Shown piece after piece: positions 8,819 through 61,524 of a stretch of DNA of 64,000 bases. The notes below the pieces were generated by a model, which saw only the letters and a list, made by a program, of their open reading frames with translations, did no database searches and had not been told where the DNA came from. Within the stretch, counting starts at the first letter, position 1; each line of letters begins with the position of its first letter. Both the position numbers and the translations under genes were made by a program. Source of the DNA: Chiloscyllium plagiosum (taxonomy: Eukaryota); NCBI RefSeq assembly GCF_004010195.1, contig NC_057756.1:4123603-4187602 (forward strand). Reading direction: 5' to 3'.

Positions 8819-8845
8819 GTTGCAGTGATCTCTTCGATGATTTGG
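8819..8845 (+). CDS. 27-nt phase-1 microexon 1 of an unnamed coiled-coil gene (xCSDLFDDL)
   Basis: tattgtcacttctttaag|GTTGCAGTGATCTCTTCGATGATTTGG|gtgaga; open in phase 1; heptad register continues into the next exon. Confidence 0.65.
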
Positions 8846-11800
8846 GTGAGATTGTTTTTTTTTTATTTCTGAATACTAAGTTGTAACTGCATTAAGGCAA
8901 TTTCTTCATAGATGAAAACTTGGAATAATTTAGGGTTTTAACGATCTCTGCAATGAAGGAACGATTGCTTTTATTCTGAGAGTTGATTGTATGTGGCGAT
9001 ATCGGCATTGACATAATTGCAGTAGAGATTTTACCCATACATTACTTTTTTCACTCGTAACTGCACTGTCATTTAGAAAGAAAACACACGGAAATGCGAA
9101 CAGAAATTAAATATTTGAATTAGCCGAATCAATTTCCTAAACCAGAATTAATTCTTTCCCAAGAGAGACAAAAGCTAAAGAAAGTTAAAACAAAGTGGGA
9201 TCTTTGCTGAATTGTTGACGTGTCGCGTTACTGAGGTTCAAAACATTACTAGCTAGTACTTCAACCAGCTTAATGTAAGAAAGTCTCTGATGAAATAAAT
9301 GTCAAAACACAAGGGCTAACCCCTCAAACAGGGAGAGTTGCACAGCTTCTCAGCTCAGGTGGCTGCGTAGCTAATTTTCAAGGCTGAGTAATGTAAACAT
9401 GAAGATCCAATCCTACTTCTCAAACTGTCCCTTCACCAAATGTTTGTTAACCCTTACGTTGAAACATGATAGACAATCACTCCGGTCTGCAATGCAAACT
9501 TAAGCTGCAACCTATTCAATTTTCGTCTCGAAAACGATAACATTTGGGTGAATATGATCGAGGTAACATGGAGTAAGAAAATAAAAGCAGTATACTGAGA
9601 ATGTTCGGAGTACTGTTATCATGATGCCATAGAGATGACTTTCGAGTGCAATTCTCCGACAGAGACAAATCAAATACACAACATCTGGTTTACAAACTAT
9701 GCTTCATTTATTTATTTTTTGTGGAAAGTTCAGGAGAAATGCTCTTCTGAGTTTGAATGTCATTTCATGTCTAAGTGAAACGAAACCTGATTCAGCATTG
9801 TTTTCTCAGGATCTGGCTTCCCATGTAATCAATAAGAATACAGCACTTATCGTGAATAATTTTAAACTTGATAGATTTCAAATTATCCCGATCATAAATG
9901 GGCTGTGTTTATTCTTTTTTTCTATGTGACAATTAGATATATTAACCATTTCAACAGCCTCTTCCATACCTTTTCAATACTGAAAAGGGGCATTTCGGGA
10001 TTTGATTACTGAAGCTCCACTTAAATTTAGTAAACTTGGCATCATCAAGTGGAGAGCATCATATTTGTTTGGCACTCGATTACTGCCTTCACTAATCTCT
10101 CCATTCACCATGAAAGCACAGTGGAATCATTGAGAACAAATGATTTGGATTGCATCAAACAATCATTTTCAAAGCTGTGATCTTTAAGAAAGACAGGGGC
10201 AGCGGATTTAAGGGAACAGTGTAACGTGCGACACATTGTCCCAACTTTAAATCAAAGATACAGTAAATACGTTGAATAGGTATTCAGTTCTGCACTGATA
10301 TTCAATATGATTATGGATGATTATCCAATTCAGAACTCCGTTTACTTTTTACTTCATTATTTTTCTAATTTCTTCATATCCAGTGATTCAGCTTTACGAT
10401 CAGTCAATACCTCCTTCAGTCAGCATTCGGCCTTGGCAATTTATGAGGTTCATCAATCCCAAAGCTCATTTTCCCCTGGTTAAAGAAATTTATCCTCATC
10501 ACAGATGTAAATGACTCACCCAACATACATGATCCGCCACCTCTGGTTCTGTACTCCCCAGTCATCGGGAAAGTGTTCCCATTTTTAGCCGGCCTAGTGC
10601 TGTTAGAATTTTATTGGTTTCTATGAGATTTCCACTCAGTGTCCTAAATTTCAGTGCATATAGCCCTAAATGATCCAAACTCTTTTCTTTACTCAGTCCT
10701 GTCATTAGAAGAATCAGACTGTAAAATATTTTTCTTCACTTTTTCCAAAGCCAGAAAATCCCGCCTTCAACAAGGATAGGTCCTGGTCATAACCTGGAGT
10801 AGGGGGTATACCCCCATCCTAACAGTGACTCCAGTATAAAACTTGGAAATATATTCTGAACAAAGCTGTGGGTGTCACGGTCCAGATGAGCCTGTTGTGT
10901 TTAAAAAGCTGGACGTCCCATCTGCCTGTGGGTTATCCATGGGCAGCAAATTACCGTCTAGTCAATGATACTATGATTAAAGATTAAATGTTAGGAATGG
11001 CAATTGAAGCCTTTAGTAAATCGTTCACACTGCACCTGGATCAGCACAATGGTAGTGAACAATGCAGTCATTGTCATATCACAGGGAAATTCACTTTATC
11101 ACATTGAGTCGGCACAGATTTATTTTGCTGATTTATTTTATATGTGTGACTACGTGTTGCGTGTGTATGTGTTGCATGAGTGGAAGAGAGAGAAAGACAA
11201 GGAGAGAAATTGACAGAAAGATTGAAAGAGAGAGACTTGCAGTTTAAATAATAATTTAATACCTACATCAATGCATAAACATGTAACTGATTCTTATAAA
11301 AATAATATTTTTTTCCTAAGTTTGCTTGGCATCCTTCCACGACTCTGGACAATGAAGTTTCCATTACACGTTTACTCTCGTTTGCTCTGCTATCGGTTAG
11401 CAATATGCATATCCCTTTAGATTATTTCTGCTTTGCTTGATGGTACACATTCCGAGGTTTGAATGTTAACATAACAGCATTAAATGGCAGGTTTATGGTC
11501 CTTCACTGCAGATCAGGTATTTTCTTTGTTTCTGTAGCTGATACTGGAGATTGACTTGATTCCTAGAGTTCACGCTTGAACGGTCCATTTTTCTGTCCTA
11601 AAAATGCTGCTGATAATTTCCACCATCTTTCCCATAACAGCCCAAAATATTTCTATATTTATTTGAACTGTTACCGTCTGTATATACCTAAGGTAAACAT
11701 AGAGCATCCTTTTATGTTCCTGCACAGTAGTAATTCGTCTGCTTATCGGTCTTCTTTTTATTTAACCATTATGCTTCCCTCAGACATTTCGTTTTTTCAA

Positions 11801-12014
11801 TTATTCATGTCGCTACATGAAATATTTTGTTTGATTCCTTGTTTGGATTGCATTCAAAAATGGAATGTCTTCCTATGAGATTGTGTGTCTCTGCTGGAAA
11901 AAAATAATGATTGTGCACACTCTTTTTATATGGGAAACGTACAACTCAAATACATGACTGAATTGTCTCAAACAATGTTTTTATTGACATAAATAATTAT
12001 TTATCTGTTTGCAG

Positions 12015-12041
12015 CACGGTCACTTTTGGAGAAGGATAAGG
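12015..12041 (+). CDS. 27-nt phase-1 microexon 2 (ARSLLEKDK)
   Basis: ttatctgtttgcag|CACGGTCACTTTTGGAGAAGGATAAGG|gtaatg; peptide resembles exon 9 (LLEKDK vs LLKKNK). Confidence 0.8.
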
Positions 12042-12499
12042 GTAATGTGCCACATTTAATTCTTCAATGTGTATACATACACACATAAGCACATACAGAC
12101 ACAAACACACATACATATATGTAACAAGACGCAAGTGTAAATGTACTTCACATTACTCTCATCGTGATATTGCTTGTGAAAGTGTCAGGAAACATACAGT
12201 AGTGATGGCAGTTTGTGTGACTGAAGACGATTCCGCAGTGGCATTCTACTGGATTAGTGCTGGGTCTCGAGTTACTTGTGATATTCAGAGATGACACAGA
12301 GTAGAAAGTGGATATGGCAAGAATTAACGAGAAGGGCACGAAGACTCGCTGGTGCTTGACAGTAAGGATGCTGCTGAGATACACAAGATTGGAGCTGATT
12401 GATCAGAGGGGCGTGTGAGTGGCAGATGATATTTGAAGCCATTAAACAGGACTTTGGAAGAAAGGACGGGACAAGGGATAACTCAATGAATAGCAAAAA

Positions 12500-13045
12500 T
12501 CTTGGAATTTCAAAGGAAAAAGTGGACTACTCATGGTGGCAAGACAAGTTAATATGTAATCAAGAAGTATAGGGAATGTTAACTGTGTGAATTGGAGCAT
12601 ATATAACGAAACTCTGGCGGTCACGTTGTCGATATACCGAAATTTGGTAAGGCTTAAATTGGAGTACTGTTGTCCAGTTTAGTCAAAACACAAAAGGAAG
12701 AATGCGTTTATCACTCAAGTTGTGCAAAAGGATATTCAACAGTATGTTGCAAGGAATGGAACGTTTTGCATATGAAGAGAATCTGGATAAAATCGTATTG
12801 TTTTCCTTGGAGCAGGGACAGTGGCCGAGGACACGGTCGAGGTATAGACTATTATGGACCCATGGACAATGTAAATTGAAAGCAGGTTTTCTTGGTTAAA
12901 GTGGAAGTTAAAATGAGACGTGACTTTAAAATTAAACTCAAAGAGTTTTTTGGCTAATTCAAAACAAATCTTTGCTGTCAGAAATTTGTGCAACTATGGT
13001 TGGAGCGGAACACATCACAACATGAATCACGTTTGAGTGTCACAA
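12500..13045 (+). mobile_element. highly degenerate CR1 3' fragment
   Basis: ttggtaaggcttaaattggagtactgttgtccagttt corresponds to the LVRPxLEYCVQF motif. Confidence 0.55.
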
Positions 13046-13049
13046 CATT

Positions 13050-13850
13050 CAGGTCATGCAGGAAACCGCAAAAGATTCAGTACTGAATGCAGTGCAATGT
13101 CGGTCTGAGGCAACATGAAGGCTTCGACAGGTTTGCTTAGAATTTTTAGACAGGTCCACACTCAACAAGACAGCAGATAACCTAATAGAATACATCATTG
13201 CTGTTATAGACGTCATTAGTACATGTTTAGAAGGCTGCATATTGAAGACGTTAATTCAAGTGTTCCCCAAATTGAAACTGTGGAAGAAACAGGTGACCAA
13301 CCCTTACTGAATTCCACCTCTGAGCCGTTCAGATCAGGTAATCCTGACTTATAAAGGAAATCCAGGTCTGATCTTCGTATGGCCATCAGACATGTCAAAA
13401 GGCATACTAAATTGAAACTGAAACCAAGAGCAACCATTCGAATATCCTATGATTGTATCAAGATTTAAAATATATCATAATTTACTATGGACATGCTTGA
13501 CAATACGTTCAGTGCATTCTACGTATGCATTGAACAGATGGACATTGAAACGATGCCCCCTCTCCAAACAACCTCGGATGAATCTGTACCCACGTTAGGT
13601 TGAGAGTGAAGCTGTGAAATGAGAATGAACACGATGGAGTTCTGGGCCGTGTGCTCAGATTCTGTGCAGACCAGTTAGCGGGAGATTTTTGCAGACATTT
13701 AAATTCTTCTTACAACAATCCCATGTCCCCACTTGCTTCTTAAATACAAGCATCATCCCACCACAAAAGAAATGTCATGCAGTGTACCTCATGACTGCCA
13801 CCCGGTGGCCCTGAACTCCACAATTGTGAAGTCCTTTCAGATGTTAGACA
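13050..13850 (+). mobile_element. Rex1/Babar-type LINE fragment
   Basis: remnants of IQVFPKLKLW, FRSGNPDLYRKSRSDLRMAIR, GRVLRFCADQLAG and DCHPVALNSTIVKSF, matching the Rex1 region upstream of RT. Confidence 0.7.
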
Positions 13851-13871
13851 ATTCAAGGTACCTTCGGGCAA

Positions 13872-13990
13872 GGAATCTGAAGAAGGGCTTATGCCTGAAA
13901 CGTCGATTCTCCTGTTCCTTGGATGCTGCGCTTTTGCAGCAACACATTTTCAGCTCTGATCTCCAGCATCTGCGGTCCTCATTTTCATTA
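13872..13990 (+). mobile_element. short Penelope-derived terminal repeat with hammerhead-like core
   Basis: ctgaagaagggcttatgcctgaaacgtcgattctcctg..., same family as 38158-38279, 46317-46422 and 50830. Confidence 0.75.
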
Positions 13991-13994
13991 CGTA

Positions 13995-16660
13995 CATAAT
14001 CCAACTGGGGAAGGGGCCTCATAGGAAAGAGTCACACTGAACATGGGAAATGAGCCCAGCGAGGTGGTTGAAGTTTCAGACGGGGTTATTTTGGGAATAG
14101 TGATGACAATTCCATATGTTTTAGAATACACATGGACAATAACACGTGTAGTTGTGAAGGAAGCGTGCTAACTTGGGGGAAGGCCAACGGTAACACCATC
14201 TGGCAGAAGCTGGAAAATGTCAATTGGGAGCAGCTGTTTGAAGGGAAATCCATATTCTATATTTGGGAGGCTTTCAAAGAAAGGTTGATTTGAGTTCAGG
14301 AGAATTTTGGTGCTGTGAAAATGAGGAATAGAAATTGCAAGATTAGGAAGTTTAGATTAGATTACTTACAGTATGGAAACAGGCCCATCAGCCCAACAAG
14401 TCCACACCGCCCCGCCGAAGCACAACCCACCCATACCCCTACATTTACCCCTTACCTAACACGACGGGCAATTTAGCATGGCCAATTCACCTTACCTGCA
14501 CATCTTTTGGACTGTGGGAAGAAACCGGAGCACCCGGAGGAAACACACGCAGACACGGGGAGAACGTGAAAACTCCACACAGTCAGTCGCCTGAGGCGGG
14601 AATTCAACCCGGGTCTCTGGCGCTGTGAGGCAGCAGTGCTAACCACTGTGCCACTGTGCCGCCCGCACTGAACATGGGAAATGATGGATGGCAGGTGAAA
14701 TTGTGAGGCTAGCGAAGAGGACAAAGGATGCAGACATAAGTCGGGGTGAATGAAGACAGATGAAGCTTTGGAAGAATATTGGGAATGTGGGACCAATCTC
14801 AAACGAGGAATTAACAGGGGTAAATGTGGTTAGGAGATATCCTTCACGAGCAGGGTTAAGTAAAACCTCAAAGTCTTTTTATTTTAATATAAGATGCAAG
14901 GCGGTAAATAGGTAAATGATTGGTTACTCAAGGAGAAAGGAGTAATGATTTGCCTGGTATCAGAGAAAATGGATGAGTACTTTGCAAACGTATTCATGGA
15001 GGATAGGGACATAGCAGACGGTGAAGTTAGGTGTAGATCTTTGGTTACTTGAGGTTAGTCGGCATAAGGAGGGAGGAGGTTTGAGTATTCTAAAAGTCAC
15101 CAAGGTGGACAAGTCCCAAGGTTCGGATGGGATCCATCGCAGGTGGCTGAGGAAAGCGAGAGATAAAATAGCTGGGAATTTACCAAACAGCTTTGCAGCA
15201 TTCTTGAACACGCGGGAGGTCCAAGAGGACTGGAAATGTGCTATTGTTGTCTGCTTGTTTAAGAAGGATAGCAGGAATAATCCACGCAAATAAAGACCAG
15301 TGAGCCTTATGTTAGTGGGAGAGAAGCTACTGGAGATGATACGGAGGGATAGTATATATACCCATTTGGAAGAAAATTGGCTTATCTGTGATTCGCAACA
15401 TGGGTAATATCACGATATACATAAGTGTTAAAATTCGTTAACGTGGTGACAAAGTTGATTGATGAGGGAGGGATGGAGACGTCATGTACATGGACTTTAT
15501 ACGGTTATTTCAAAGGTTTCCCTTTGGTAGGTTGATGAAAATGGTGAAGTCGCATGGGGTCCAGGGTGGTCTACCTAGGTCAATAGAGATGTGGTTGGAC
15601 AATAGAAGACAGTCAGTAGTTTGGAAGTGAGCTTTTCCAAATGGACCCCTGGGACCAGTGGTGTGCCACAGGGTTCCATGCTTTGACAGCTGTTGTTTGT
15701 GATATACTTAAATTATTTGGAGGAAGGTGTAGTTTGCCTCATTAGCAGATAACATTAAGATTGGTAGAGTAGCAGATAGTGAAGGGGATTGTCAGAGAAT
15801 ATAGCTGAGTATAGATAGATTGGAGATTTGGCCAAAGAAATTGCAAATGGAGATCAAACTGGATAAATGTGAGGTGGTGCGTTTGGAAGGTCCAATTCAA
15901 GAGCGAAGTATACGTAAATGGAAATATCGAAAGGAAAATTGGTGAACAGAATGATCTGGATATTGAGGTACATTGTTCCGTGAAGGTGGCAAGCATGTTA
16001 GTAGAGTGGTCAGGAAGGCTGACAAGCATGCTTTCCTTCGTTGGAAGGGATATTGAGTACAAGAGTTGGCAGGTTATGATACAATTGTAAAAGACTTTTG
16101 TTCGGCCACTTTGGCCATTTGGAATACTGTGTACAGTTCTGATCGCCACATCACCAAATTTAAGTGGATGTTTTGGAGAGGTTTCAGAGGACGTACATCA
16201 GGATTTTGCCTGGTATGGAGGGAACGAGCTATGAGGAGAGGTTGAGTGAATTAGGGTTATTTTCATTGAGAAGGAGCTTGAGACGGGACCTGCTTGATGT
16301 ATACAAAATCATAAGAAATTAAGACAGAGTTGATAGCAAGAAACGTTTTTCTTCCCCAGAGTGAAGGACTCACTTACTAAGGACTACGAGTTCAAAGTGA
16401 GAAGGGAAAAGTTTAGGGGAGATATGCGTGGTAAGTTCTTCATGCAGAGGGTGGTGAGTGTCTGGAATACGTTGTCAGCAAAGGTGGCAGTGGCGGGAAT
16501 GATAGCATCGTTTAAGATACGTGTAGACAGATTCATGAATGGGCAGGGAGCAAAGGGATACAGATTCTCAGAAAATAGACGACAGGTTAAGATAAAGGAT
16601 GTGGTTCAGCGCAAATTTGGAGTGCTGAATGGCCTGTTCCTGTGCTGTAATGTTCTTTGT
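13995..16660 (+). mobile_element. degenerate CR1 LINE ORF2 (EN end, RT, 3' end)
   Basis: KVDKSQGSDGIH, EDWKCAIVVCLFKK, SGVPQGS and FFMQRVVSVWN motifs; interrupted by a SINE at 14351-14665. Confidence 0.9.
14351..14665 (-). mobile_element. HE1-like SINE, well preserved
   Basis: reverse complement starts gggcggcacagtggcacagtggttagcactgc; B box ggttgaattcc; (ttaga) tail repeats at 14351. Confidence 0.9.
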
Positions 16661-16689
16661 TTTAGGCGTGGCTAAAAAAAGAAAACTGG

Positions 16690-16959
16690 TTTAGATTACA
16701 TATTGTGTGGACACAGGCTATTCGGCCAAACAAATCTGCATGGAACCTCCAAAGAGTAGCCCACCCATACCCATTGTCCGACTAATGCACCTAACACTCT
16801 ACACGCAATTTTCTTGACCTGCATACATTTGGACTGTTGGAGGAAGCCCAATCAGACATAGACAGAATGTGCAAACTCCACACAGAGAGTTACCCATGGC
16901 TGGAGCTGAACGTGAGCTGTAAGGTAATAGTGCTAACCACTGAGCCTCCGTGCTGCCCT
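16690..16959 (-). mobile_element. HE1-like SINE, degenerate
   Basis: gcaaactccacacag and gtgctaaccactgagcc blocks shared with other copies. Confidence 0.75.
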
Positions 16960-17199
16960 AAAGTGGAGGGAGATCTTAAGACATTTAGATCACGAGGATT
17001 TTTCTGTGGACAGGAGGGATGCTCAAGAAAGAAAGTATGTAGTTAAACCGAAGGGCCACGAGCAGGTGGTTGGAAGGTTTAAAATAAAGTGGCTGGGATG
17101 TGCGAATGGAGCAGCAGTTGAGAACGTTTCCTGGTTGAGGAGAAATTCACATTAAGTTAAATAATTTCTATAGGAAGAACAGATGGTGAATGAACAGTA

Positions 17200-18180
17200 G
17201 AGCGTTTAAGTGTACTTACAAGGAATATAGCTGGTAACACAGAAGAGCTTAGAGCGGCATTAGCACATGCAAATACGATGTACTACCCATAAAAAAAAGC
17301 TTTGCTGAATGAATTGTTCCAGTTTTTGTCTGTTTCAAACCAGGTAGAAACGGATATACCAAGAGTGTGGGAGCTGCATAAATGATGAAAGAGAATTTCA
17401 CAGCTGTACTAAGATAGTACATCTTGGTGGACTACTTTTGTAAGGTCACAGGAGCAGAACTTGTTTTTAAAGTGTAATCACTGTTGGGGTAAGCTAAATG
17501 TGTTCCAAAAATTAGTGGAAGATAGAGGAATCATTATATAAGCGGATCGTGAAAGAATGTAAAAGCATAACTGTTTTAGAAGTGGGAGCTTTTAAGTTCC
17601 ACAACAAGGGATTATTTTCAACAGAATTTGTCAGGCGCATCTAAGTCAGTTCTTGAAAAAAAAAATGTCAATAACCCAAAAACGGAAGAGATTTTCCAGA
17701 CCTGCGACTGGGAAGCGTTTGACCAGTTGATTGAACTTAAACTGGGATCACATTTGGGAATATTGGTCATAAGTCTGTATATTTTAACAAAGTATGGACA
17801 AGGGTTATACTTCTCTGGTGAGAGTTTTAAATCTTGCCAAGGCAATTTATAACAGTAATAGAGAGAAACTGGAGAAATTATGTTGTGACCTGCTTTTCGA
17901 AGGTAAATCCATATCTGAGATTTGGGTGTCATTTTAAGGCAAATCGATCAGACTTCAGGATGAACATGTTGCTGGAAGGATGAGAAGTAAGAAAGTGAAG
18001 ATTACAGAAAATTGAATGACAACAGGTTTTTGAAGTTTCGTCAAAAGGGCAACAGGAAGCACTTGCAACTTCAGCGAACTAAAATCAAGCACATGTGTTA
18101 AAGAATACAAAGGAAGCAAGAGAGATATAAGCAGGAGATTAGGAGATTCAGAAGTGGACACGAAATGCCCTTTTCACATA
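17200..18180 (+). mobile_element. highly degenerate CR1 endonuclease-region fragment
   Basis: remnants resembling the CR1 EN start and the VGDFNFP motif (gtgggagcttttaagttcc). Confidence 0.45.
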
Positions 18181-18282
18181 GGATTCAGGGTGAGGTTTGT
18201 GAAACTAAAATCAAGGTAGACGCTTGAGGAAGGAAAGAAAGCGGAAAAGAAACGAAAGAAAAGAGGAAAACATCCACGTAAT

Positions 18283-18620
18283 TTAGGAGAAAGTGAAGAC
18301 TGCTGGTTCTGCAGATCAGAGTCAAAAAGTGCCATTCTGGAAAATCACAGTCGGTTAGGCAGCGTTGGAAGAGCAGGAGAGACGAAGTTTTGAGCTTAAC
18401 CTCTTCAGCAAGAATGTAGGGGAGGCCCAAGCGTGCTGACAGATAAATGGGAGCGGAGTAGGGCTGTTGAGAGATTACCTGGAAATGTGATAGGTAGATG
18501 GAGGTGCTGTGTGCGTGATGGTGATAGGTCGGAACGAATGGTGGAGCAGATAAGTGGGAAAGAAGATGTGCAGCTACAACAGATCAAGAGGGTGGTGCCA
18601 AATTGAAGCATTAGATGTAA
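18283..18620 (-). mobile_element. Penelope-like 3'/terminal repeat fragment
   Basis: reverse complement matches 29800-29930 and 31455-31650. Confidence 0.7.
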
Positions 18621-19789
18621 GTATCAGCATTTGGAGTTGAGACAGCTGTCCTGAGATTTCAAAGTTTCTTTCCCTCTTCTAATATTCTACATTAACTATT
18701 TGTTCATCTGAGAATGGATAAAGTGGAGGCCATAGTATATAAGTGTATTTGTTAATGAATATTCTAATGGGATATATCTGCTTCTTGTGGTCTGCTTACT
18801 TTAAGTGTGAAAATGTCTTTTTAATAATAAAACTATTTGATAGGTACGAAAATACAGGAACTGATAAGAGACTTTCAACTGTGCTGTAAACTAAGTGCAG
18901 TTATGCACAGACACTCAAAACTCGTGAGAACAAAATTTGCAGGAAATCACCAACGTCTGTCTCTGCCAAATAAAATTAAATATTCAGGATTCCTTCCGTG
19001 TACAGATAATTTCAAGTAAGACACATACTTGGCATAAAGATCTGTGTTTTAAAAAGAAAATCTGGGGTAAATGTTGATTTTCCAGCAGAACTGTGAAGAC
19101 TAATGACTGCGAAGCAAGTACTATGTTAGGAACCGTGTTGAAGATGGCGAGGGCAGATCCAGACTGGCTAGCAGCCAACTCTCTCGAAAAATGACGTTTG
19201 GTGCGAGTTTTCAACTCACAATAGTAAAGGAAAATGGTTGTGATATCTCAAACATGTGTTCTATGCATTTCGGTGTTTAATAAATGAATTGAATTTTCTT
19301 GAGCTACCATTGAATCCGGACTACCCTTATCCTGTCTATATTGTTGCCTCATCGAAACGGGCAACAGATCTTCCCGTTCCTCCGTGGGTGTCACTAACAT
19401 GGACGCACATGCTTTAGGTGGACAAAAGCATTGGAAAAAAAAGCAGCAGTTGCATTTCCAATTAGTTGAGTATCAGAGCAGTAGTCAGAGATGAAATAAC
19501 AGAAGCATCATTCAGTGAGGCTTTGTGGGTGTAGAGAATAAATGTGAATGAAATGGTGACGTCATTGGCATTGGGGTCTTGGCCCCAAATAGTCAAAGGG
19601 AATCAGAGGAATAAACAGGTGGGGAGATTGTGCAGACTAGCAGGAGCATTCGGGCTGTCACACTGGGAATGTAAATTTTTCCAACATAGACTGCCACTGT
19701 CATAATTTTAGGGGCTTAGATAGTTTGGAATTTCTTAAAATGTTCAGGAAAGTTTCGACAAGAAACACAAAAAATGGAGAGGCAAAACC

Positions 19790-21482
19790 TGTAGCACTCG
19801 TTCCCACAACTAGACTCGTACCCACCACTAGAAAACCAAGACATATCCTTTTTGAAAATACTTCAGAAATCATGAGATATGAACAAGGCAGACTTCCAAA
19901 AAAATGAAACTAAATGGATACAATACACCGTGCTTCCACGGATTATCGACAGTACACAAAACAGGACGCACTCCCAGACCAACAGTCTCACTACCTGGAA
20001 CACCAACGTACAGAGTAGCCAAGGAACTCCACGGAAAGCTAAAACACCTCGAAGACGACTCACGCCACTCCATTCACTCCAACCAAGAATTACTGAGCAC
20101 CATCAAAGACACCATTATAGGATAGGATGAAATAATGGTCTGCTTTGACGTGAGAGTCCTGTTCATATCAATTAACATTCACCTGGCTAAACGAACGCTG
20201 AGTGCACTAATAGAAGAACTAAGGACACAAACACCAGCCAGCGCCAATTCTATCAGCAAAGTTAACACTGTCAAGGTAGCAGAGCTGTGCCTCACCACCT
20301 ACTTCACGTTCATAAACAAGACCGACAAAAAAATCAATGGAACTCAGCTGGGATGACGAATATCAGGGTATTTTGCATAAGTAATAATGCAGGGACAAGT
20401 AGCCCGACTAACAATACAAGTTAACTTTGGGTCCGCGACATGCATGACACCTTTATAATCAAAAAGCAGAACAAATTATAGGAAACCTGCAACAGCATCA
20501 AGAATATCTTGACTGGCATGAAATTGACAAAGCAGGTGGAGAAAGACCATAGGTTTCCATTCCTACATGTGACAGTAGAACGAAGAGTTAATGCAAATCT
20601 TCAAACTAGCATCTACAGGAAGAAAGAACACAAACCAAACAAATACCTAACTATATAAGCAATCATCCCAACACCTATAAATGGAGCTGCATCAGGACAT
20701 TGTTTGAACGATTCACAACACACCGTATCACCCAAAAACTACGTATAGCAGCAGAAAAATACCTATACAGCGTATTCAAGAACAATGATTATCCAGTAAA
20801 CACCGTCCAACAATTCCTCATCAACAAACCCAAACAAGCTGACACAAAGCGCCCAGAAACGCTAGCGACATTACTTTACATCAAATTCATCTCTGAAATG
20901 ACTTCCAGATTACTCAGACCACATGGCATTTAATAGATCTCAGTGCTACCAACACACGGAAACAGCGACTAATGAACCTAATGAATGTCAAAAACAACCA
21001 ACAAAGCGCAAATCATGTCCAAAATAACATGCAAATCTGTATCAAGCGGTACATCGGAAAAACAGGCAGGACAACCGCCATCAGGATAGATGCACGCCAA
21101 CTAGCCAACAGAAGACATGAATCACTGTCACTAGTATTCTTACATACAGACGAAGAAGGACAATACTTTGACATCCAACCAAGGACGTGCTAAACAAGGA
21201 CATGCTCGAGAATTCCGAGAGGCGTGGCATTCCAAACGGAACTCCATCAATAAAGACATTTATTTGAAGCCCATCTACCACCCTCTAAGGAAACAAACCG
21301 GAAATAACATCACCAAACTTAGGAAACCAAGATGTATAAATAGAAGCAGGGCATAGCACCAGCACTTCACCGGAAGGTCAGTGATGATGTTACCTAGTAT
21401 GATGACGAAACATGTTGAAACGAACCTTCATGCTCAGCAAACAAACTTGCATTCAGAACCTCAATCGGAGCTATAAATCTCA
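19790..21482 (+). mobile_element. Penelope-like element (Poseidon-like), RT plus GIY-YIG, degenerate
   Basis: TPTYRVAKEL, MVCFDVRVLFISI and YIGKTGR motifs; 3' end has a degenerate hammerhead-like gtgatgatgttacc...gacgaaac (~21381-21411). Confidence 0.85.
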
Positions 21483-21747
21483 GCAGTCCCTAACACTTGA
21501 CATGATCTTGGGAAATACGGCAGGATTGGTGACTGAGGTAACAGTGTTAAAGTACATTGGGAGCAAAGACCATAGACCATGGTTTCGAAATAGTTATACA
21601 GGTGAATAAGACTGTTCCGTCATTTCAAGTTCTAAAATAGGGAAAGACGAACCTTGATGGAATTAGGCATGAGCTTACACGCTTTGACTGGAATAGTTTG
21701 TTTGCAGGAAAAGGGACTGCAAGCAAGAGGAAGGTCTTTAAGAGTGA

Positions 21748-21978
21748 ACAAAATTAAAAATCACACAACACCAGGTTATAGTCCAACAGGTTTAATTGGA
21801 AGCACACCAGCTTTCTGAGCGACGCTCCTTCATCGGGTGATTGCCACAATCACCTGATGAAGGAGCGTCGCTCCGAAAGCTAGCGTGCTACCAATTAAAC
21901 CTGTTGGACTATAACCTGGTGTTGTGTGATTTTTAACTTTGTACACCCCAGTCCAACACCGGCATCTCCGAATCATGA
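21748..21978. mobile_element. palindromic short element with inverted hammerhead-like cores, probably Penelope-derived
   Basis: arms of about 100 bp centred on 21845; CTGATGAaGGAGCgtcGCTCCGAAAgcta at 21854-21882; flanked by tctttaagagtga and tcttgaaaagtga. Confidence 0.8.
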
Positions 21979-24239
21979 TCTTGAAAAGTGAGATAGCTAA
22001 AGTTCAAGGTTTTTGTTTTCCTGTAAGGGTGAATGACATGGTTGGCAGGAAGAGAGAATCATCAATGGCACGTGTTATTGATGCTTTGACCAGAAAAAGA
22101 AAGGAGGCATAGTTCTGCCGCAGGCAACAGGGATCAAGGGAATCCTTGAATGTGTATCGGCAATATAACATAAGGAAATCAGGAGGGCGAAAAGTTGGAA
22201 CGATATACGCTAGGCTGTGAAAATTAAGGTGAAACCAAAGAGGCTGTCTCAGTATATTAAAGGAAAAATAATAACCGGAGAGAGAATAGGACGATAGTGG
22301 TCATGTATGTGTGGAATCGAAAGGGATGATATTTTTACAAAGAAGAAATACATTAGACTTGCGAACTTGGGCAATTCATGGTGATATTTTGGGGACAGCC
22401 TGTATCACAGTAGCAAGAGGTGTTGGACATATTAGTATATATGTATGTTGATAAATCTCCTGGTCCTGACCCGATATACTCAAGAGTACTGAAAGAGACG
22501 AAACAAGAATTTGCGGTGGTGCTGGCTGATACTTTTGCATCATCGTTAGCCACGGTGAGATCCCCGAATATCAGAGGGTATTGAAAGTTGTGCCTTTATT
22601 CAAAATGGGCTGCAAAGTATAACAATTTCCGCCACAAACAGTGACCTGCTACGGGTAAGTTAGTTCAGAATATTTTGAGATACAAGTATTTGGAAAGATA
22701 GGGTTTAGTGAGGTGAATTCAGAATAGCTTCGTGCGTGGCAGATTACACCTCACAAATGTCTGTGATGAAGTGTGCAGAATGATTGGTGAGGACAGGGCA
22801 GTCGGTATGGATGTCACTAAGGCCTTTGGTAGGCTATTCTGTAAGCTTGCATCACATGGAATCGAGGTGAAGCTGACAAATTGACTTGATGGTTGGAAGC
22901 ATAGAATAATGATGGAAGGATGCTAGTCGGACTAGAGTCATGTGACTACTGGAGTGCCTCAGGGGCGGTCAAGATCCCATTGCTGGTTGTTATCAATATC
23001 AATGACTTTAATGAGAATGTACAAGGCATTGCGCATAAGTTTGCAAATGGCGCATAAATCAGCGATATCTTGGGCTCTGAGGAAGGTACAATTGCAAAAA
23101 TTGCAAAAGGATCTTGATCAGCTGAGGAGGTAGACTGAGAAATGAAAATAGAGTTTCATATAGGCATGTGTGAGGGCTTGCATTCTGGAAAGTCAAATCA
23201 AGATAGGGGTTTCATGTAGTATGGTAGTGATTTAAGAAGTGTCACTTAACAGACAGAAATTGAAATTCAGGTGCACGCTTCTCTGAAAGTGGAGTCACAA
23301 GCAGTCAGGGCAGTGAAAATGACATTTGGCACACTGGCTTTCATCAGTCAGTGCATTTACGATAGAATTTGGAAGTTATGTTGGAGTTCTAAAGGACGTT
23401 GGTAAGGTCGCACTTACATTATCGATTTCAGTTATGGACAACTTGCAATAGGAAGAATGGTCTTAAAGTAGAATTCGTGCAAATAAGGTTATCAGTGTTT
23501 TGCAGGAATCCATGGTCTGAATTCTTGGGAAGGGTTGGAAAAGCTAAGGGATATTTTACAGCATAGCGGACTAAAGGGGATATTACAGAATTCTAGGGTG
23601 AATGCATTCAAGGTTGGGGTATGGAGAGTGAGAAAACATCAGTTTAAGGTTAGAGAAGAAAGAATAAAAGGGAACCGGAATAGCAATTGTTTTGCACAGC
23701 TGGTCCTTCAGCCAGAGGATTAGTTGACTGTGGAACCTGTTATGGAGGTTACATTAAACGCATTTCAAAGGCATTTGGACAAATACACGGATAGGAAACG
23801 TTTAGAAGGATGTGGGCTACGTGCAGGAAGATGGAGTTAGCACGGGTGGATATTTTGGTCAGCATGGACCAGTTGGGTCGAATGACCTGCCTCCATGTTA
23901 TGGGACTTTATGAATCTGACTATTGAATGAAACTTATATTTGATCATTGAATATTGCAAGAATCACTGTTCTGGTGTTGGTCTCAGGTTGCAGGTTCAAT
24001 CAAAAAAGCACGTACGTTCGGAGACGGTGGTGGAGGCGTTTCAATATTTTGAGGAGGCACACTAAATGTCTATTTTATAAGTTTTTGAATATTTAACATA
24101 ATTTAAAGTAATTTTACTTTGCTTTGCATCGCTTGTTTTAAAATCACTCACGTTAAAATGTTATCTCCAACTTTTCTTTTGTAGAGCGTTATGAAAAAGC
24201 TTTACATTTCTCAATTCTATCCCATTACTTGCTGTTCAG

Positions 24240-24275
24240 AAATACGCAACTTAAATGAAGCACTGAGGAATTCCG
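24240..24275 (+). CDS. 36-nt phase-1 microexon 3 (EIRNLNEALRNS)
   Basis: ttacttgctgttcag|AAATACGC...GGAATTCCG|gtacgt; same length and hydrophobic pattern as exon 7. Confidence 0.8.
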
Positions 24276-25172: not shown

Positions 25173-25199
25173 AGCAAAAGCTGCATCAATACAAGGAAG
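25173..25199 (+). CDS. 27-nt phase-1 microexon 4 (EQKLHQYKE)
   Basis: aatgtttaatag|AGCAAAAGCTGCATCAATACAAGGAAG|gtaaga; strong donor. Confidence 0.8.
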
Positions 25200-25794: not shown

Positions 25795-25821
25795 AACTAA
25801 ATGAGTGCTCAAAAAGTGATG
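25795..25821 (+). CDS. 27-nt phase-1 microexon 5 (ELNECSKSD)
   Basis: long CT tract ...ctctctcttcacag|AACTAAATGAGTGCTCAAAAAGTGATG|gtgagt; near-consensus sites. Confidence 0.85.
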
Positions 25822-26810: not shown

Positions 26811-26837
26811 ATGAAAGACTGCAACAAGCAAAATCAG
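26811..26837 (+). CDS. 27-nt phase-1 microexon 6 (DERLQQAKS)
   Basis: tgtgtacatcag|ATGAAAGACTGCAACAAGCAAAATCAG|gtaaag. Confidence 0.8.
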
Positions 26838-40345: not shown

Positions 40346-40449
40346 CTAGTTTAAACTAAAAATAATTCATCTATAATCATTTTCGCTGTGATGCTGCATA
40401 AACAAAATGGCCTCTGAAAAGGCAATAACACATCTTCTTTATTAAACGG

Positions 40450-49160: not shown

Positions 49161-49694
49161 TGTTGCTCTACCAAATTTTCGGAGTTTATGCGGTGGAGAC
49201 CATCGTCGACCACATCAGAGGGGAAATTGTGGTCTTTGAAGAAGGAGGCCATTCGGGTTGTTCGGTAGATTTGAATTCACTGGAAAAAATAAGCCAAAGA
49301 CAGCATAGCTTTGTCAAAGGAGTAGCATCGGCGCAGAATTCAAGCTGGCTATTGATGCAAGTAATGTAGGCATTGGTGCTAAACTCTTACAAGAAGACGA
49401 AGAGCAGATAGAAAGACGCATTGGTATTTATTTCCAAAACAAAATCACGTAAAGATATAATCCACTTTTGAGAAGGAAACTTTTGGTATTAATGTTACAA
49501 CATTTCAATATCTATATTTGCAGCAACGTGTCTGAGCCAATTGTAAGCACTAAACAGAGCAGGACAATCGAACATAATGAGCAGCACAATGTAACAGCTT
49601 GGATGAAGAAAGCTGGAGGCATTCAGTGGCAGGAGCAGTTCAACTGAAGTAGACTGCAGTGATGATGATGTGCATGCTGAGAATCAATGTAATG

Positions 49695-50868
49695 TGTAGT
49701 GGAATTGGTCCTCTTGGGAGCAGATGCGGTGGAGGCGAACGAATTCGGAATACATGATGGCGTTTTTACAGGGGGCAGGGTGGGAGGAGGTGTAATCTGG
49801 GTAGCTGTGGGATTAGGTTGGTTTGTAGTAATCTGCATCTGCTCGCAAGCGGACCTATTCCACTATCGAACAACCCAAATGGCCTCCTTCTTCAAAGACC
49901 ACAATTTCCCCTCTGATGTGGTCGACGATGCGTTCCACCGCATCTCCTCTACTTCCTGCACCTCCGCTCTTGAACGCTGCCCCTCCAAACGCCACCAGGA
50001 CAGAACCCCGCTGGTCCTCACCTTCCACCCCACCAACCTCCGGATACATCGTATCATCCATCGTCATTTCTGCCACCTCCAAACAGACCCCACCACCAGG
50101 GATATATTTCTCTCCCCCCTCCCCGCTCCATATCAGCGTTCCGGAGAGACCACTCCCTCCGCGACTCCTTCGTCAGGTCCACAACCCCCCACAACCCCTC
50201 CTCCGCTCCCTGCACCTTCCCCTACAAACGCAAGAAGTCCAAAACGTATGCTCACACCTCCCCCTCACCTCCCTCCAAGGCTCCAATGGATCCTTCCATA
50301 TCCATCGCAAATTCATCTGCACCTCCACATACATCATTTATGTATGCACCCGATATGGCCTCCTCTACATTGGGGAGACAGGCCGCCCACTTGCGGAACG
50401 TTTCAGGGAACATCTCTGGGACACCCGCACCAATCAACCCAACCGCCCGTGGCTGAATACTTTAACTCCCTCTCCCATTCCGCCAAGGACATGCAGGTCC
50501 TTGGCCTCCTCCATCGCCAGACCCTGACCACATGACGCCTGGAGGAAGAGCACCTCATCTACAGCCTAGGAATCCTCCAACCACACGGGATAAATGTAGA
50601 GTTCTCCAGCTTCCTCATTTCTCCTCCCCCACCTTATCTCAGTCCCATCGCCCGGATTCACCACTGCCCTCTTGACCTGCAATCTTCTTCCCGACCTCTC
50701 CGCCCCCACCCCATCTCCAGCCTATCACCCTCACCCTCACCTCTTTCCACCTATCGTATTCCCAGCGCCCCTCCCCAATGTTCCCTCTCCCCTACCCTTT
50801 ATCTCAGCCCGCTTGGCACACCAGCCTCATTCCTGAATAAGGGCCTATTTCTGAAACGTCGATTCTCA
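49695..50868 (+). mobile_element. Penelope-like element 3' half with GIY-YIG endonuclease and an inverted 5' segment
   Basis: CTRYGLLYIGETGRPLAERFREH; 49695-49829 is antisense RT-thumb sequence; terminal repeat ttcctgaataagggcctatttctgaaacgtcg. Confidence 0.9.
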
Positions 50869-51175
50869 AGTAAAATCTAATAACTTATTTTGAGAATAAT
50901 CAATGAAGTGGCTTTGAAGTTGTTCTATCCATTTACTCCAAGTAATGGTTTGTATCTTGATTTAGCAGACAGTTCTATCAATGGCAAATTACTGGTTAAA
51001 TGCATGTGTGCACCCACCTTCATATACAACCATATATAATTTTGTTGATTGGCATATCCAACTCATCATTCACAGAGATAAATGTCTCCGTAAACTTCAT
51101 TACACGATAATTTTGTAAGTTTTTAAATTTTCTGTGTGACTGCATCATGTTGAAATTTAAAGTACTCAAGTTAAT

Positions 51176-52212: not shown

Positions 52213-52420
52213 TCCTTCAGGATACACAACCTTTTCTCAGTCCCATCCTGCAGGTTCAACAAACCAATCTCGGTCCCATCCTTCAGGATACACAACCCAT
52301 TGTTGGTCCAAACCTAAAGATTCTATGAATCCCACTACCTCTATCCTCCTGCAGGATCCATGTCCCTTCCTACATTTCTACCTTCCTCCAGGTTTTGCAT
52401 CCCTTCCTACCTTGGCAAAA
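52213..52420. repeat. degenerate 33-bp minisatellite
   Basis: tccttcaggatacacaaccttttctcagtccca / tcctgcaggttcaacaaaccaatctcggtccca / tccttcaggatacacaacccattgttggtccaa, then decayed units. Confidence 0.8.
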
Positions 52421-53625: not shown

Positions 53626-54329
53626 AAATCCACAGCTTGGGTTCTGCGAGGCACACTGAGGTCCTGATCTCATTTTGTCTTTCATTCAAGCGTGCACAAA
53701 CAAGCAAATCCCAGAGCTAAGATGTGAATGACAGCATTTGACATCAAGGTCATGTTATCTTGATGAAGCAAATCCTGAGGTAATAGTTATCAGGGCCAAA
53801 ACATTCTCATAGTTGGAGCCATATTCAGAAACATAAGTAGGTTAGTTACCTCAACTTTAAGACATCTCTGCAATCGAACTGTTTTTACATGTATGAGACC
53901 CACATTTCGTCTGTTGCTTTAAAACTGACTTTAATTTAAAAACGGATTTAACTAAAAGGTCAAAGGTGAAGATGGTTAACAAATATTGCAAGTGTTGAAT
54001 GCAATTTGTGACCTTTGACACGAAAGCAGCTCATGTGCAACAATATCAATACCCAAATATATTCCGGCAGTGGTTTCAAAATTGTGAAATCACAATCGTC
54101 CTACACACGGGCCAGGTAAAAGCTATTTCCAACATCAGTGAATCAACACATTGCAAATACTTATTTAATTGTGTCATCCTCACAAAATCGCAAACTATCA
54201 AAAGTCTATATGTTAACTATTGTTCAGAAGTTGAACTGGAGAATCGATATCAACAGAGTGTCTGTGAGAGCAATCCGGAATCAATGAATTGTGCAGTATA
54301 TTAGTAATCCCTTCTTTCTGCAAAGCTTA

Positions 54330-56174: not shown

Positions 56175-56210
56175 ATCTGAATAAGCTCCGAGAAGATCTA
56201 AGAAATAAAG
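56175..56210 (+). CDS. 36-nt phase-1 microexon 7 (DLNKLREDLRNK)
   Basis: aatcatcttattag|ATCTGAATAAGCTCCGAGAAGATCTAAGAAATAAAG|gtgaaa; resembles exon 3 (shared L..E.LRN pattern). Confidence 0.8.
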
Positions 56211-56598: not shown

Positions 56599-59275
56599 AC
56601 ATAGAACATAGAACATTACAGCGCAGTACATGCCCTTCGGCCCTCTATGTTGCGCATAACTGTCATACCAATCTGAAGCCCATCTAAACTATACCATTCC
56701 ATGTACTTGTCCATATGCTTGTCCAATGACGACTTAAATGTACTAAAAGTTGGCGAATCTAGTACCGTTGCAGGCAAAACATTCCATACCCTTACTACTC
56801 TCTGACTAAAGAAACTACCTCTGACATCTGTCCTATATCTATCACCCCTCAATTTAAAGCTATGCCCCCTCGTGCTCGACGTCACTATTCTTGGAAAAAG
56901 GCTCTCCCTGTCCACCCTATCTAACCCTCTGTTTATCTTATATGTCTCTATTAAATCACCTCTCAACCTTCTTCTCTCTGACGAAAACAGCCTCAAGTCC
57001 TCAGCCTTTCCTCATAAGACGTTCGCTCCATACCAGGCAAAATCCTAGTAAATCTCTTCTGCACCATTTCCAAAGCTTCCGCATCCTTCTTATAATGTGA
57101 TGACCTGAAATGTACACAATACACCAAATGCAGCCGCACTAGAGTTTTGTACAGCTGTAGCATTACCTCATGTTTCCGGAACCCGATCCCTCTATGAATA
57201 AAAGCTAAAACATTGTATGCATTCTTAACAACCCTGTCAACCTGAGTGGCAACTTTGAAGGATTTGAATACCTGGGCAACGAGATGTCTCTGCTCATCTA
57301 CACTACCAAGAATCTTACCATTAGCCCAGTACTTTGCATTCCGGTTACTCTGACCAAAGTGAATCACCTCACACTTGTCCGCATTAAACTCCATTTGCCA
57401 CCTCTCAGCCCAGCTCTGCAGCTTATCTATGTCTCTCTGTAACCAACAACATCGTTCGTCATTATCCACGACTCCACCAACCTTAGTGTCATCTGCAAAT
57501 TTATTAACTCACCCTTCTACGCCCTCATCCAGGTCATTTATAAAATGATGAACAGCAGTGGACCCAACACCGACCCTTGTAGTACAGCACTGGTAACTGG
57601 ACTCCAGGATGAACATTTCCCATCAACACCACCCTCTGTCTTCTTTCAATAAGCCATTTACTGATCCAAACTGCTATATCTCCTAAAATCCCATTTTGTA
57701 CAACAGCCTACTTTGGGGAACCTTATCGAACGCCTTGCTGAAATCCATATACACCATATCAACCGGTTTGCTCTCATCTACCTGTGTTGTCGCCTTCTCA
57801 AAGAACTCAATACGTTTTGTGAGGCACGACCTACCCTTCACAAAACCGTGCTGACTATCCCTAATCAAATTATTATTTTCTAGAGGATTATAAATCCTAT
57901 CTCTTATAACCTTTTCCAACATTTTTCCAAAAACTGAAGTGAGGTTCACTGATCTATAATTACCAGGATTGTCTCTATTCCCCTTCTTGAACAGGGGAAC
58001 TACATTTGCTATCCCCCAGTCTTCTCCCACTATTCCTGTAGACAGTGACGATTTAAAGATCAATGCCAAAGGCTCGACAATCTTCTCCCTGGCTTCCCAG
58101 AGGATCCTAGGATAAATCTCATCCGGCCCGAGGGACTTATCTATTTTCAGACTCTGCAGGATTTCTAATACCTCTTCCTTGTGAAGCTCAATCACACCTC
58201 TTCCAGTAGCTTGTATCTCAGTAATCTCCTCGACATCATTGTCGCTTTCTAGAGTGAACACTGTTGACAAATATTCATTTAGTGCTTCCCCTATCTCCTC
58301 TGACTCCACACAAACTTCCCAATACTATCCTTGATTGGCCCTAATCTTACTCTCGTCATTCTTGTATTCCTTAAATACCTATAGAAAGCCTTAGTGTTTA
58401 CCATGATCCTATCCGATAACAACTTCTCAAGTCTCCTCCTGGCTCTTCTAAGCTCTCTCTTTAGGTCTTTCCTGGCTACCTTGTAACCCTTTAGCGCCAG
58501 AACTGAGCGTTCAAATCTCATCCTAACATAAGCCTTCTTCTTCCTCTTGACCAGAGATTCCACTTCCTTCGTAAACCACGGCTCCCGTGCACTACAGCTG
58601 CCTCCCTGCCTGACAGTTACATACTTATCAAGGACACACAGTAGCTTTTCCTTGAATAAGCTCCACATTTCTAATGTGCTTATCCCCTGCAGTTTCCTTC
58701 TCCATCCTATGCTTCTTAAATCTTGCTTAATCGCATCGTAATTGTCTTTCCCCCAGCTGTAACTCTTGCCCAGTGGTATACACCTATCCCTTTCTATCAT
58801 TAAAGCAAACATAACAGAATTGTGATCGCTATCACCAAAGAGCTCACCTACTTGCAAGTCTAACACCTAGTCTGGCTCATTACCCAGTACCAAATCTAAT
58901 GTGGCTTCGCCCCTTGTGGGGCCTGTCTACATACTGTGTCAGGAGGCTCTCCTGCACACACTGGACAAAAACTGACCTATCTATAGTACTCGTACTATAG
59001 TGTTCCCAGTCAATATTTGGAGAGTTGAAGTCCCCCAGGTCAACTATCCTGTCTCTCTCACTCCGATCGAGAAATATCTTTCCTATCCTTTCCTCTTCAT
59101 CTCTGGAACTATTCGGAGGCCTTTAGAAAACTCCCAACACGGTGATCTCTCCTTTCCTGTTTCTAACTTCAGCCCATACTACCTCAGTTGACGAGTCCCC
59201 AAACATCCTTTCTGCAACTGTAATACTGTCCTTTACGAACAATGCCACACCTCCCCCAGTTTTACCATCTCCTCT
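56599..59275 (-). mobile_element. CR1 LINE ORF2 (EN to 3' tail) with few disablements
   Basis: FGDSDHNS, EPWFTKEV, QHGFVKGRSCLT, YMDFSKAFDKVP and RRLRGDLIETYK; tail acatagaacatagaaca is the reverse complement of (ttctatg)n. Confidence 0.95.
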
Positions 59276-60318: not shown

Positions 60319-60345
60319 ATGAGGAGCTAAACCGTTGTGACACTG
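60319..60345 (+). CDS. 27-nt phase-1 microexon 8 (DEELNRCDT)
   Basis: catgcttttcag|ATGAGGAGCTAAACCGTTGTGACACTG|gtaaat. Confidence 0.85.
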
Positions 60346-60463
60346 GTAAATTGTTTGGAATTGCTTCATGTTAGAACTTCAGTCCTTAAATATTCACACA
60401 TTGCTGTTTACTTCTCACAATTTTATAAATGTCTTTCATTTGCATTTTGTTCTTGGCTCACAG

Positions 60464-60490
60464 ATGCAGAATTGCTCAAGAAAAACAAAG
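60464..60490 (+). CDS. 27-nt phase-1 microexon 9 (DAELLKKNK)
   Basis: ttttgttcttggctcacag|ATGCAGAATTGCTCAAGAAAAACAAAG|gtaaca; 118-nt intron from exon 8. Confidence 0.85.
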
Positions 60491-61497
60491 GTAACAAACA
60501 CAGTCCTCATGCAAGTTTATCTGCATATTTCTGTATGTTACTTCGTGACAGCTCAGTGATAAACACTAATCAGATTATTATAGTTCCTGTTAGTTTCTGA
60601 GGCCAGCATTATAGAGAAGTGAACCTTGCACAGCATATCGAAAAGTAAGTTTTGAGATTGCAATACCTTTAACTCTCCCTGAAATCAACGATTCTGGCAT
60701 TTCAAATATAAGCAAAATCATTTCTGCTATATTCATACGAATACAGCTAAAACGTTCGTGAGCGTTGGGGCATCAAACAGATTGGCAGTTTAGGTCCTCA
60801 ACCCAGATGTAAATCTTCTTCTTCGCACCTCTCTATCATCTATTTTGATTCTTTCTCCTTTTTGATATCAATACATGAGTCATGTTACAAAATTTTGAAT
60901 TTATGCAAATTAGAATATACTCATTGCATTTCACACAATGACTTTTTAATGATTGATATAGAGCGTTTGAAACGCAGAATATAGGAGTAGGGTTGAACAC
61001 TCGGCCGATTAAGCCTACTCCTCTGTCAACATGATCAGGACAAATCATGCAACTCACGAACTCTTACCTGTTCTGTTACAATTTACTTTGATCACATTAG
61101 TTGAGACGATTTCATTCACATTTCCTTATGAAAGTGTTAACTTTTTGGGCTCAATAATTTCCTGTCTCCTCAACAATTCTACAGTACAACTCATTCTATT
61201 TTAAGAGATGTCGCCCGACGGATGTCCTTAAAAACATTTTCTGCCACTTATTGTTCCACAACTGATTTTGGTATGGAATGTAAAGTTATGAAGATTATCA
61301 TTCCTGCATAGGTCCTTGATGGTAACATGTGGGATATGCTGCAAAGGTCGAATTGTCGACATATGTTTCCACATTCCAGTCGTTTGCTCCAACGTAAGTT
61401 ATTAACACTAATGACAGACAAGCTAAACGTGTGAACAACATTTTTGGATGAATGTTTTTTATCCTTCTTTCTCTGCGCATTTTTTCCTACCTTTCAG

Positions 61498-61524
61498 AAC
61501 TACAAGATGCTTTGGAGAAATTAT
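61498..61524 (+). CDS. 27-nt phase-1 microexon 10 (ELQDALEKL)
   Basis: long pyrimidine tract ...tttttcctacctttcag|AACTACAAGATGCTTTGGAGAAATTAT|gtaaga. Confidence 0.85.

Follow-up and report, generated by a model that had tools for sequence, protein, structure and literature searches.

What kind of gene would be written in pieces of nine or twelve codons, set kilobases apart among the remains of transposons? The question is raised by a stretch of 64,000 nucleotides (nt) from the shark Chiloscyllium plagiosum (contig NC_057756.1, here C47, positions 4123603-4187602; this whole stretch is called the window), in which an earlier note, made from the letters alone, had proposed a hidden gene of ten tiny exons encoding a modular coiled coil. 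Followed up in the 3.56-Gb genome, with 130 kb read on each side of the window (324 kb in all) and a further 10 kb upstream, the proposal proves right about the exons and too modest about the gene: the ten are real, but they are only an internal slice of at least 48 exons spread over at least 322 kb. The window is very probably an internal piece of a very large plus-strand shark gene which, over all this distance, consists of microexons only and encodes a long coiled-coil rod.

Ten microexons within a longer array

All ten proposed peptides were located on the plus strand, each between an AG and a GT, and the exon bounds bear out their sizes: eight are 27-nt and two are 36-nt exons, for a total of 288 nt or 96 residues (Table 1). 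Every exon is in phase 1-1, with two bases that finish a codon at its start and one base that opens the next at its end. Since the last base is a G in nine of the ten and a T in the final one, each first codon is split 1+2, and the modules nearly all start with D, E, A or G because nine exons end in G. The T that closes exon 61498-61524 opens the first codon of the following exon, found at window +65372, which reads FDTLLGKEK.

How easily could such segments be found anywhere? Their mere existence means little, as the window holds 265 open phase-1 AG-N27/36-GT candidates on the plus strand and 261 on the minus strand. Their splice sites, however, are anything but average: under a score that is blind to the peptide, and whose matrix frequencies are approximate, the ten exons rank 1-7, 9, 15 and 20 among the 265 open plus-strand candidates. 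A composition filter (splice score > -3, at least 45% E/K/D/R/Q/N, at most one of P/G/W/F/Y) lets through 10 candidates on the plus strand of the window vs 3 on the minus strand; 20 dinucleotide shuffles yield 0.9 on average and never more than 3. These 10 are nine of the proposed exons and a further candidate at 54228-54263; the exon at 8819 fails the charge filter, is compositionally odd, and is neutral for the heptad continuity described below.

Over the 324 kb, the same filter passes 46 candidates on the plus strand and 4 on the minus strand, while ten dinucleotide shuffles give a mean of 6.7 and a maximum of 11. The excess is confined to particular lengths: 24 vs 2 (plus vs minus) at 27 nt, 16 vs 1 at 36 nt and 9 vs 4 at 18 nt, the two strands being about equal at every other length divisible by three between 12 and 63 nt. 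With two weaker members and exon 8819 added by hand, the filter set makes up a chain of 48 exons, which runs from window -128574 to +193046 (322 kb, or about one exon per 7 kb) and has a conventional splice consensus (acceptor CAG in 37 of 48, donor GT[A/G]A). An 18-nt exon, xDKECN, also belongs to the array, and the three exon lengths are thus all multiples of 9 nt. Two 18-nt candidates of a single class, AADKS and AEDKS, lie at window +73514 and +117557. No larger phase-1 exon (39-600 nt) with good sites and a protein-like sequence was seen in the 324 kb.

The claim that the exons lie in repeat-poor DNA holds for those at 8.8-27 kb, which are single-copy by sequencing depth: a DNA run gives a depth of about 8-25 there, vs 1e5-1e6 in repeat bins, and spans the region, with no joints where the exons lie. 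Only one copy of window 24100-27000 exists in the genome. No retrocopy of the third exon (24240-24275) was found: with up to 3 mismatches allowed, its 36-mer matches a single place in the genome.

Heptads, paralogues and sister arrays

The conceptual chain encoded by the 48 exons has 486 residues, with 19% K, 16% L, 15% E and 9% D. Charged residues (K+E+D+R) account for 48% of it, helix breakers are few (0.2% P, 1.4% G), and its strongest hydrophobic period is 3.46 residues; both composition and period are hallmarks of a coiled coil. The heptads, moreover, run on across the exon junctions. In the four exons from 25795 to 60345, with 26837 joined directly to 56175, the strong hydrophobics fall 6/6 in one register. 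The ten window exons in genomic order give a 3.5-residue signal above that of 98.9% of random exon orders (p 0.011), and single-register a/d occupancy over neighbouring exons of the 48-exon chain beats permuted orders with p 0.0004-0.0008, although some register shifts (stutters) remain. This continuity in genomic order is the best evidence here for joining the exons in that order, and their consecutive splicing may be inferred from it. The ten are most likely real coding microexons that jointly encode a coiled coil, as the earlier note had it. The candidate at 54228-54263 is probably false, since with it only 4/9 strong hydrophobics of the same four-exon stretch keep one register; leaving it out, as had been done, was right.

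Could any of these exons be skipped to tune the length of the rod? The idea stands as far as the reading frame goes, which is always kept, but not for the structure: a 27-nt exon (9 residues) moves the heptad register by 2 and a 36-nt exon (12 residues) by 5, so that skipping a single exon would break the coil. A 27+36 pair (21 residues) is alone in leaving the register unchanged. The continuity of the heptads across junctions also shows that single exons do not act as structural modules. One cysteine occurs in each of thirteen exons, and in 10 of the 13 it stands three residues past a strong hydrophobic, that is, at a core position. Were the rod to lie outside the cytosol, these core cysteines could hold its chains together. 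No N-x-S/T sequon occurs in the 486 residues, where about two would be expected by a rough estimate.

Several exon classes recur along the array in the same local order: xxxLLxKxK, EI[RQ]xLxxxLxxx, ExxLxxCxx (the L-x-x-C class, to which the ELNECSKSD exon at 25795 belongs) and DERLxxAKx. Thus ARSLLEKDK has paralogues in ASRLLDKEK (window +104208), ASKLLEKEK (sampled at 0.524 Mb of the contig) and ANTLLNKEK (sampled at 3.183 Mb), EIRNLNEALRNS has one in EIRKLKDDMSNK (window +107285), and DERLQQAKS one in DERLINAKD (window +99282). Paralogous exons are 48-74% identical, and their flanking introns are no more alike than random sequence, with the exception of one recent duplicate unit (exons +178121 and +184597, 89% identical, with flanks at 87%). 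Over 14 paralogous pairs in the predicted frame, the proportions of synonymous (pS) and non-synonymous (pN) differences are 0.74 and 0.29 (ratio 0.40, Fisher 2e-12), vs pN/pS of 0.82 and 1.99 in the other two frames; for five pairs taken between loci, the ratio is 0.30, vs about 1.0 in the other frames. Exon copies of 87% and 73% identity on unplaced contigs keep AG, GT and the open frame, which suggests that they are uncollapsed haplotypes or unassembled array units.

The family is not confined to one place. A genome-wide search with three degenerate exon-class patterns places 7/64, 6/65 and 6/29 of the matches on the plus strand of C47, a contig that makes up 0.3% of the genome. The C47 matches outside the known exons fall within 0.513-0.607 Mb or at 3.130 and 3.187 Mb, and mark related arrays at about 0.51-0.61 Mb and 3.13-3.19 Mb. 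In a 9-kb sample at 0.524 Mb, EIQRLRMDLKDC, an 18-nt exon, EIEDLLQNI and ASKLLEKEK follow one another in the order, and with broadly the spacing, of the exons at window +100584, +100870, +101213 and +104208; a sample at 3.183 Mb has ANTLLNKEK, then EIRELKNPVDGK. Only exon islands align between the loci. The 18-nt exon (xDKECN or EENACN) and its strongly conserved splice sites are common to arrays 3.6 Mb apart. As no pattern matches occur from 3.19 to 3.99 Mb, the contig can be read as carrying at least three paralogous loci rather than one gene.

How would such an array work, and how could it have arisen? Over at least 322 kb the coding sequence would consist only of 27-nt and 36-nt exons and a few of 18 nt, all in phase 1-1, and splicing in genomic order would yield a highly charged, proline-poor alpha-helix with running heptads, of at least 486 residues. 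Growth of the array would be due to ancient tandem duplication of short blocks of exons, roughly 27-36-27(-27), and to at least one recent duplication, and purifying selection would preserve it. Its product may be a dimeric or trimeric rod, presumably a spacer, stalk or tail that separates domains whose exons lie beyond the sequence read.

Of the introns within the window, those of 29.3 kb and 4.1 kb are filled with reverse-transcriptase fragments of long interspersed nuclear elements (LINEs) and with a Penelope-like element (weak GIY-YIG match). The 29.3-kb intron, full of such debris by its Pfam transposon domains, precedes exon 56175-56210. Two intronic open frames on the gene's strand are probably non-coding; Pfam matches neither of them, and a search with the longer one among proteins of 97-312 residues found no relative at E<=0.001.

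Table 1. Exons, domain matches and other features of the locus; positions are those of the window unless a contig is given (aa, amino acids).
Feature	Position	Strand	Remarks
27-nt microexon GCSDLFDDL	8819..8845	+	splice-score rank 6/265; least certain member
27-nt microexon ARSLLEKDK	12015..12041	+	rank 5/265
36-nt microexon EIRNLNEALRNS	24240..24275	+	rank 4/265
27-nt microexon EQKLHQYKE	25173..25199	+	rank 7/265; donor GTAAGA
27-nt microexon ELNECSKSD	25795..25821	+	rank 1/265; Cys three residues past Leu
27-nt microexon DERLQQAKS	26811..26837	+	rank 15/265
36-nt microexon DLNKLREDLRNK	56175..56210	+	rank 20/265
27-nt microexon DEELNRCDT	60319..60345	+	rank 9/265; L-x-x-C class
27-nt microexon DAELLKKNK	60464..60490	+	rank 3/265; 118 nt past exon 60319-60345; matches LLxKxK pattern
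27-nt microexon ELQDALEKL	61498..61524	+	rank 2/265; ends in T
Doubtful 36-nt candidate EVELENRYQQSV	54228..54263	+	weak sites, score -1.8; passes composition filter
18-nt exon xDKECN	100870-100887 (flank coordinates)		
Copies of the unit around the ELAExxKxIKDL exon	C95580:13250-14050; C92478:7700-8500; C10281:250-1050		exon intact in each
SPRY	C47:4,577,660-4,577,983	+	E 1.1e-14; intact 177-aa open frame
PRY			none on C47 among the best 150 of 292
C2-set_2 (B7/butyrophilin-type IgC)	C47, all 5.69 to 10.2 Mb		11/67 genome matches on C47
V-set			no match near the array among the best 150 of 1319 candidates
MHC_I			0/45 matches on C47; most on C37, others on unplaced contigs; contig-level linkage only
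Lectin_C			0/43 genome matches on C47 (all 133 candidates scored)
C2-set_2 exon cluster	C47:5.69-10.21 Mb		V-set exon at 10,206,275, 1.8 kb before the C2-set_2 exon at 10,208,040
MHC class I exon matches	C37, about 0.45-17 Mb		most of those found
PRY-SPRY exon cluster	C37, mostly 27.5-34.4 Mb		very large; dozens of intact ~190-aa frames
Transposon debris	27989-31300	+	
Transposon debris	39321-42228	-	
Transposon debris	49693-50877	+	
Transposon debris	56619-59122	-	
Intronic open frame	3309-3644	+	111 aa
Intronic open frame	4427-4963	+	178 aa
33-nt tandem repeat	52213-52309		2.9 copies, 73% matches
Run of N	C47:4122425-4123602		1178 N, directly adjoining window base 1; perhaps an assembly gap
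Run of N	-98601		500 N
Run of N	+86735		333 N

Gene identity and rival readings

To which gene, then, does the rod belong? As the earlier note had reported, the window contains no Ig, lectin or B30.2 domain (Pfam, 150 longest of 405 ORFs, open reading frames), and its warning that ORF-based annotation would miss these microexons is supported. Pfam on the longest ORFs of the 334 kb found no host protein domain, only LINE, Penelope and long terminal repeat debris, the extra 10 kb upstream being transposon debris; no Ig or transmembrane exon appeared among these ORFs. A scan for CpG islands gave nothing clear.

One possible answer, though an unlikely one, is that the exons come from an intracellular structural coiled-coil protein of golgin, centrosome or synaptonemal type, without an immune role, the rod of which was split into microexons in this lineage. 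The K/E/L/D/Q-rich sequence with its balanced charge would suit such a protein, as would the missing sequons, the lack of any extracellular domain exon in the 334 kb and the absence of Lectin_C from the contig. On the other hand, shuffled modules of extracellular or immune type are where phase 1-1 throughout is more often seen, the core of the rod holds recurrent cysteines (10/13 three residues past a hydrophobic), and several paralogous arrays share one contig with B7-type Ig exons next to them. We know of no vertebrate rod protein with this exon structure, which also counts against this origin.

Rather doubtful, too, is the idea of a butyrophilin/BG-type gene with the array as its cytoplasmic "heptad-exon" tail and the B30.2 exon at C47:4,577,660 as its end. 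Such a shark gene would join short exons multiplied as in BG to a B30.2 terminus as in butyrophilins; this would refine, not replace, the reading of the window as an internal piece of a microexon-only rod gene. The SPRY match there, the only one on C47 among the best 150 of 293, shares the strand of the array and follows the last microexon read by 261 kb, a placement with a rough chance estimate of about 0.01, and C47 carries 11 of the 67 genome matches to C2-set_2. Excerpts of published accounts describe very short "heptad" exons, several in number, that separate the B30.2 exon of butyrophilins from the transmembrane exon (PMC6790196), cytoplasmic tails of 13-36 exons of 21 or 24 nt in the chicken BG genes, which belong to the butyrophilin family (PMC4046983), and butyrophilins in cartilaginous fish, both sharks and rays (PMC12841164). 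Yet 261 kb of unread sequence separate the array from the SPRY exon, a gap for which a generic microexon pattern reached a held-out sensitivity of just 0.3-6% at useful specificity. C2-set_2 has no match on C47 below 5.69 Mb, V-set none near the array (best 150 of 1319) and PRY none on C47 (best 150 of 292), while the MHC (major histocompatibility complex) class I exons are on C37 and on unplaced contigs. Downstream of the two sister arrays, no SPRY is among the matches listed, and the exons measure 27 and 36 nt, not 21 and 24.

With the chicken BG genes, as far as the excerpts describe them, the array shares a long run of tiny frame-neutral exons encoding a heptad coiled coil, membership of a multigene family, and an exon number that changes by duplication. 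It differs from them in that each BG exon (21 or 24 nt) holds one heptad, whereas the edges of the 27-, 36- and 18-nt shark exons fall off the heptad edges, and in that IgV and transmembrane exons lie just upstream of the BG tail, in an MHC location, neither of which was found for the shark array. The BG-type lengths are not in excess in the shark sequence (3 vs 1 on plus and minus at 21 nt, 5 vs 2 at 24 nt). BG genes are also compact; by contrast, the shark array is more than 320 kb long, with introns of about 7 kb on average. Butyrophilins, in what is excerpted from PMC6790196 and PMC12841164, likewise have very short juxtamembrane coiled-coil exons, variable in number and sometimes skipped, with a B30.2-type exon downstream on the same strand, a position in which the shark contig has its SPRY exon, only putatively linked to the array. 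However, they have four or so such exons vs at least 48, and no IgV or IgC exon was found upstream of the array. The BG/butyrophilin comparison made at the outset holds as an analogy and is a reasonable lead, but membership of that family is at most possible, as exon length and contig-level linkage to the MHC do not agree with it.

Is the array still a working gene? Set against the observed exon signals, strand bias, heptad continuity, substitution pattern and paralogous arrays, a number of points weigh on the other side of the reading of a very large microexon gene. Two single-cell RNA runs and one possible RNA run over window 8000-27999 have reads on repeats only and zero depth on the unique exon bins, and are uninformative on expression. 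Neither gene ends nor start or stop codons were found in the sequence read. The splice matrix was not a trained one; judged by the shuffles, chance could account for about 4-7 of the 46 candidates that pass the filter; and the paralogous pairs were partly chosen by peptide likeness or by third-position-degenerate patterns, which biases pN downward. Consecutive 27-nt exons between multi-kb introns are, moreover, hard to square with ordinary exon definition. A dead or never-expressed relic, in which exon-like islands of an old gene are no longer spliced, would account for RNA runs that gave no support and for introns loaded with LINE and Penelope insertions, but it is very improbable: the open frame and both splice sites are kept in 48/48 exons while the introns have diverged beyond alignment, the substitutions are frame-specific and mostly synonymous, and both the recent duplicate and the copies of 73% identity are intact. 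That the ten exons were simply chance picks from hundreds of open AG-N27/36-GT frames, to which the similar counts on the two strands (265 and 261) might lend some colour, can practically be dismissed in view of the splice-score ranks, the strand asymmetry, the shuffles, the length spectrum, the heptad continuity and the colinear paralogous exon islands 3.6 Mb away.

Related exon systems and what the array means

Other genes come close to parts of this design. Exons of non-fibrillar collagens are 27, 36, 45 or 54 nt long and start with a split glycine codon; lengths in multiples of 9 nt, phase 1-1 and exons ending in G are features in common with the array, which differs from them by having no Gly-X-Y triplets (Gly 1.4%) and by encoding alpha-helical heptads, not a collagen helix. 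In the stalk of CD23/FCER2, repeated 63-nt exons each encode 21 residues of coiled-coil neck. This too is an exon-per-module stalk with a copy number that varies between species, and the array's 27+36 nt also make 21 residues; CD23, however, has three or four such exons and then a C-type lectin domain, whereas the shark contig is without a Lectin_C match. Neuronal microexons of the SRRM4 type have a UGC motif close upstream of the 3' splice site, and this motif is not enriched here (TGC within -25..-3 in 20/48, vs 39% of 1810 control acceptors). The schistosome micro-exon genes, from an excerpted description (PMC10526429), resemble the array in their mostly short symmetric exons (3-81 bp) and long introns, but encode small secreted flatworm proteins with no coiled coil, and there is no sign of homology to the shark array. 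Full-text searches of the literature turned up nothing relevant on coiled-coil arrays of 27/36-nt exons.

That a coiled coil can be built from tiny symmetric exons is a principle already known from BG and butyrophilin genes. What sets the array apart are the 18/27/36-nt lengths, the off-heptad boundaries, the scale (48 exons or more, spanning 322 kb or more), and the several loci on one contig. Next to chicken BG, it would be an independent second case of a coiled coil built exon by exon and evolving by exon duplication, and may extend the butyrophilin/BG tail design to cartilaginous fish. If transcribed as predicted, it would be among the most extreme vertebrate microexon genes known, with at least 48 consecutive exons of 27 or 36 nt, each isolated in a transposon-rich intron of about 7 kb, and would challenge exon-definition models of splicing. 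The locus is invisible to ORF-based and most homology-based annotation, and a family of such loci has probably been missed or mis-modelled in shark genome annotations.

Could the family be stranger still? A bolder proposal, speculative and improbable as it stands, is an undescribed shark gene family with loci of half a megabase or more, whose coiled coil of 500-800 residues would come wholly from 18/27/36-nt phase-1 microexons and whose product would end in a B30.2 domain. Were this true, the "heptad-exon" tail of butyrophilin and BG genes would have been taken to an extreme in cartilaginous fish, and BG-like tail expansion would either be far older than birds or have arisen twice. The multiples-of-9-nt rule would hint at descent from collagen-type exons, and the sharks would offer a natural test case for how the spliceosome joins dozens of consecutive microexons across multi-kb introns.

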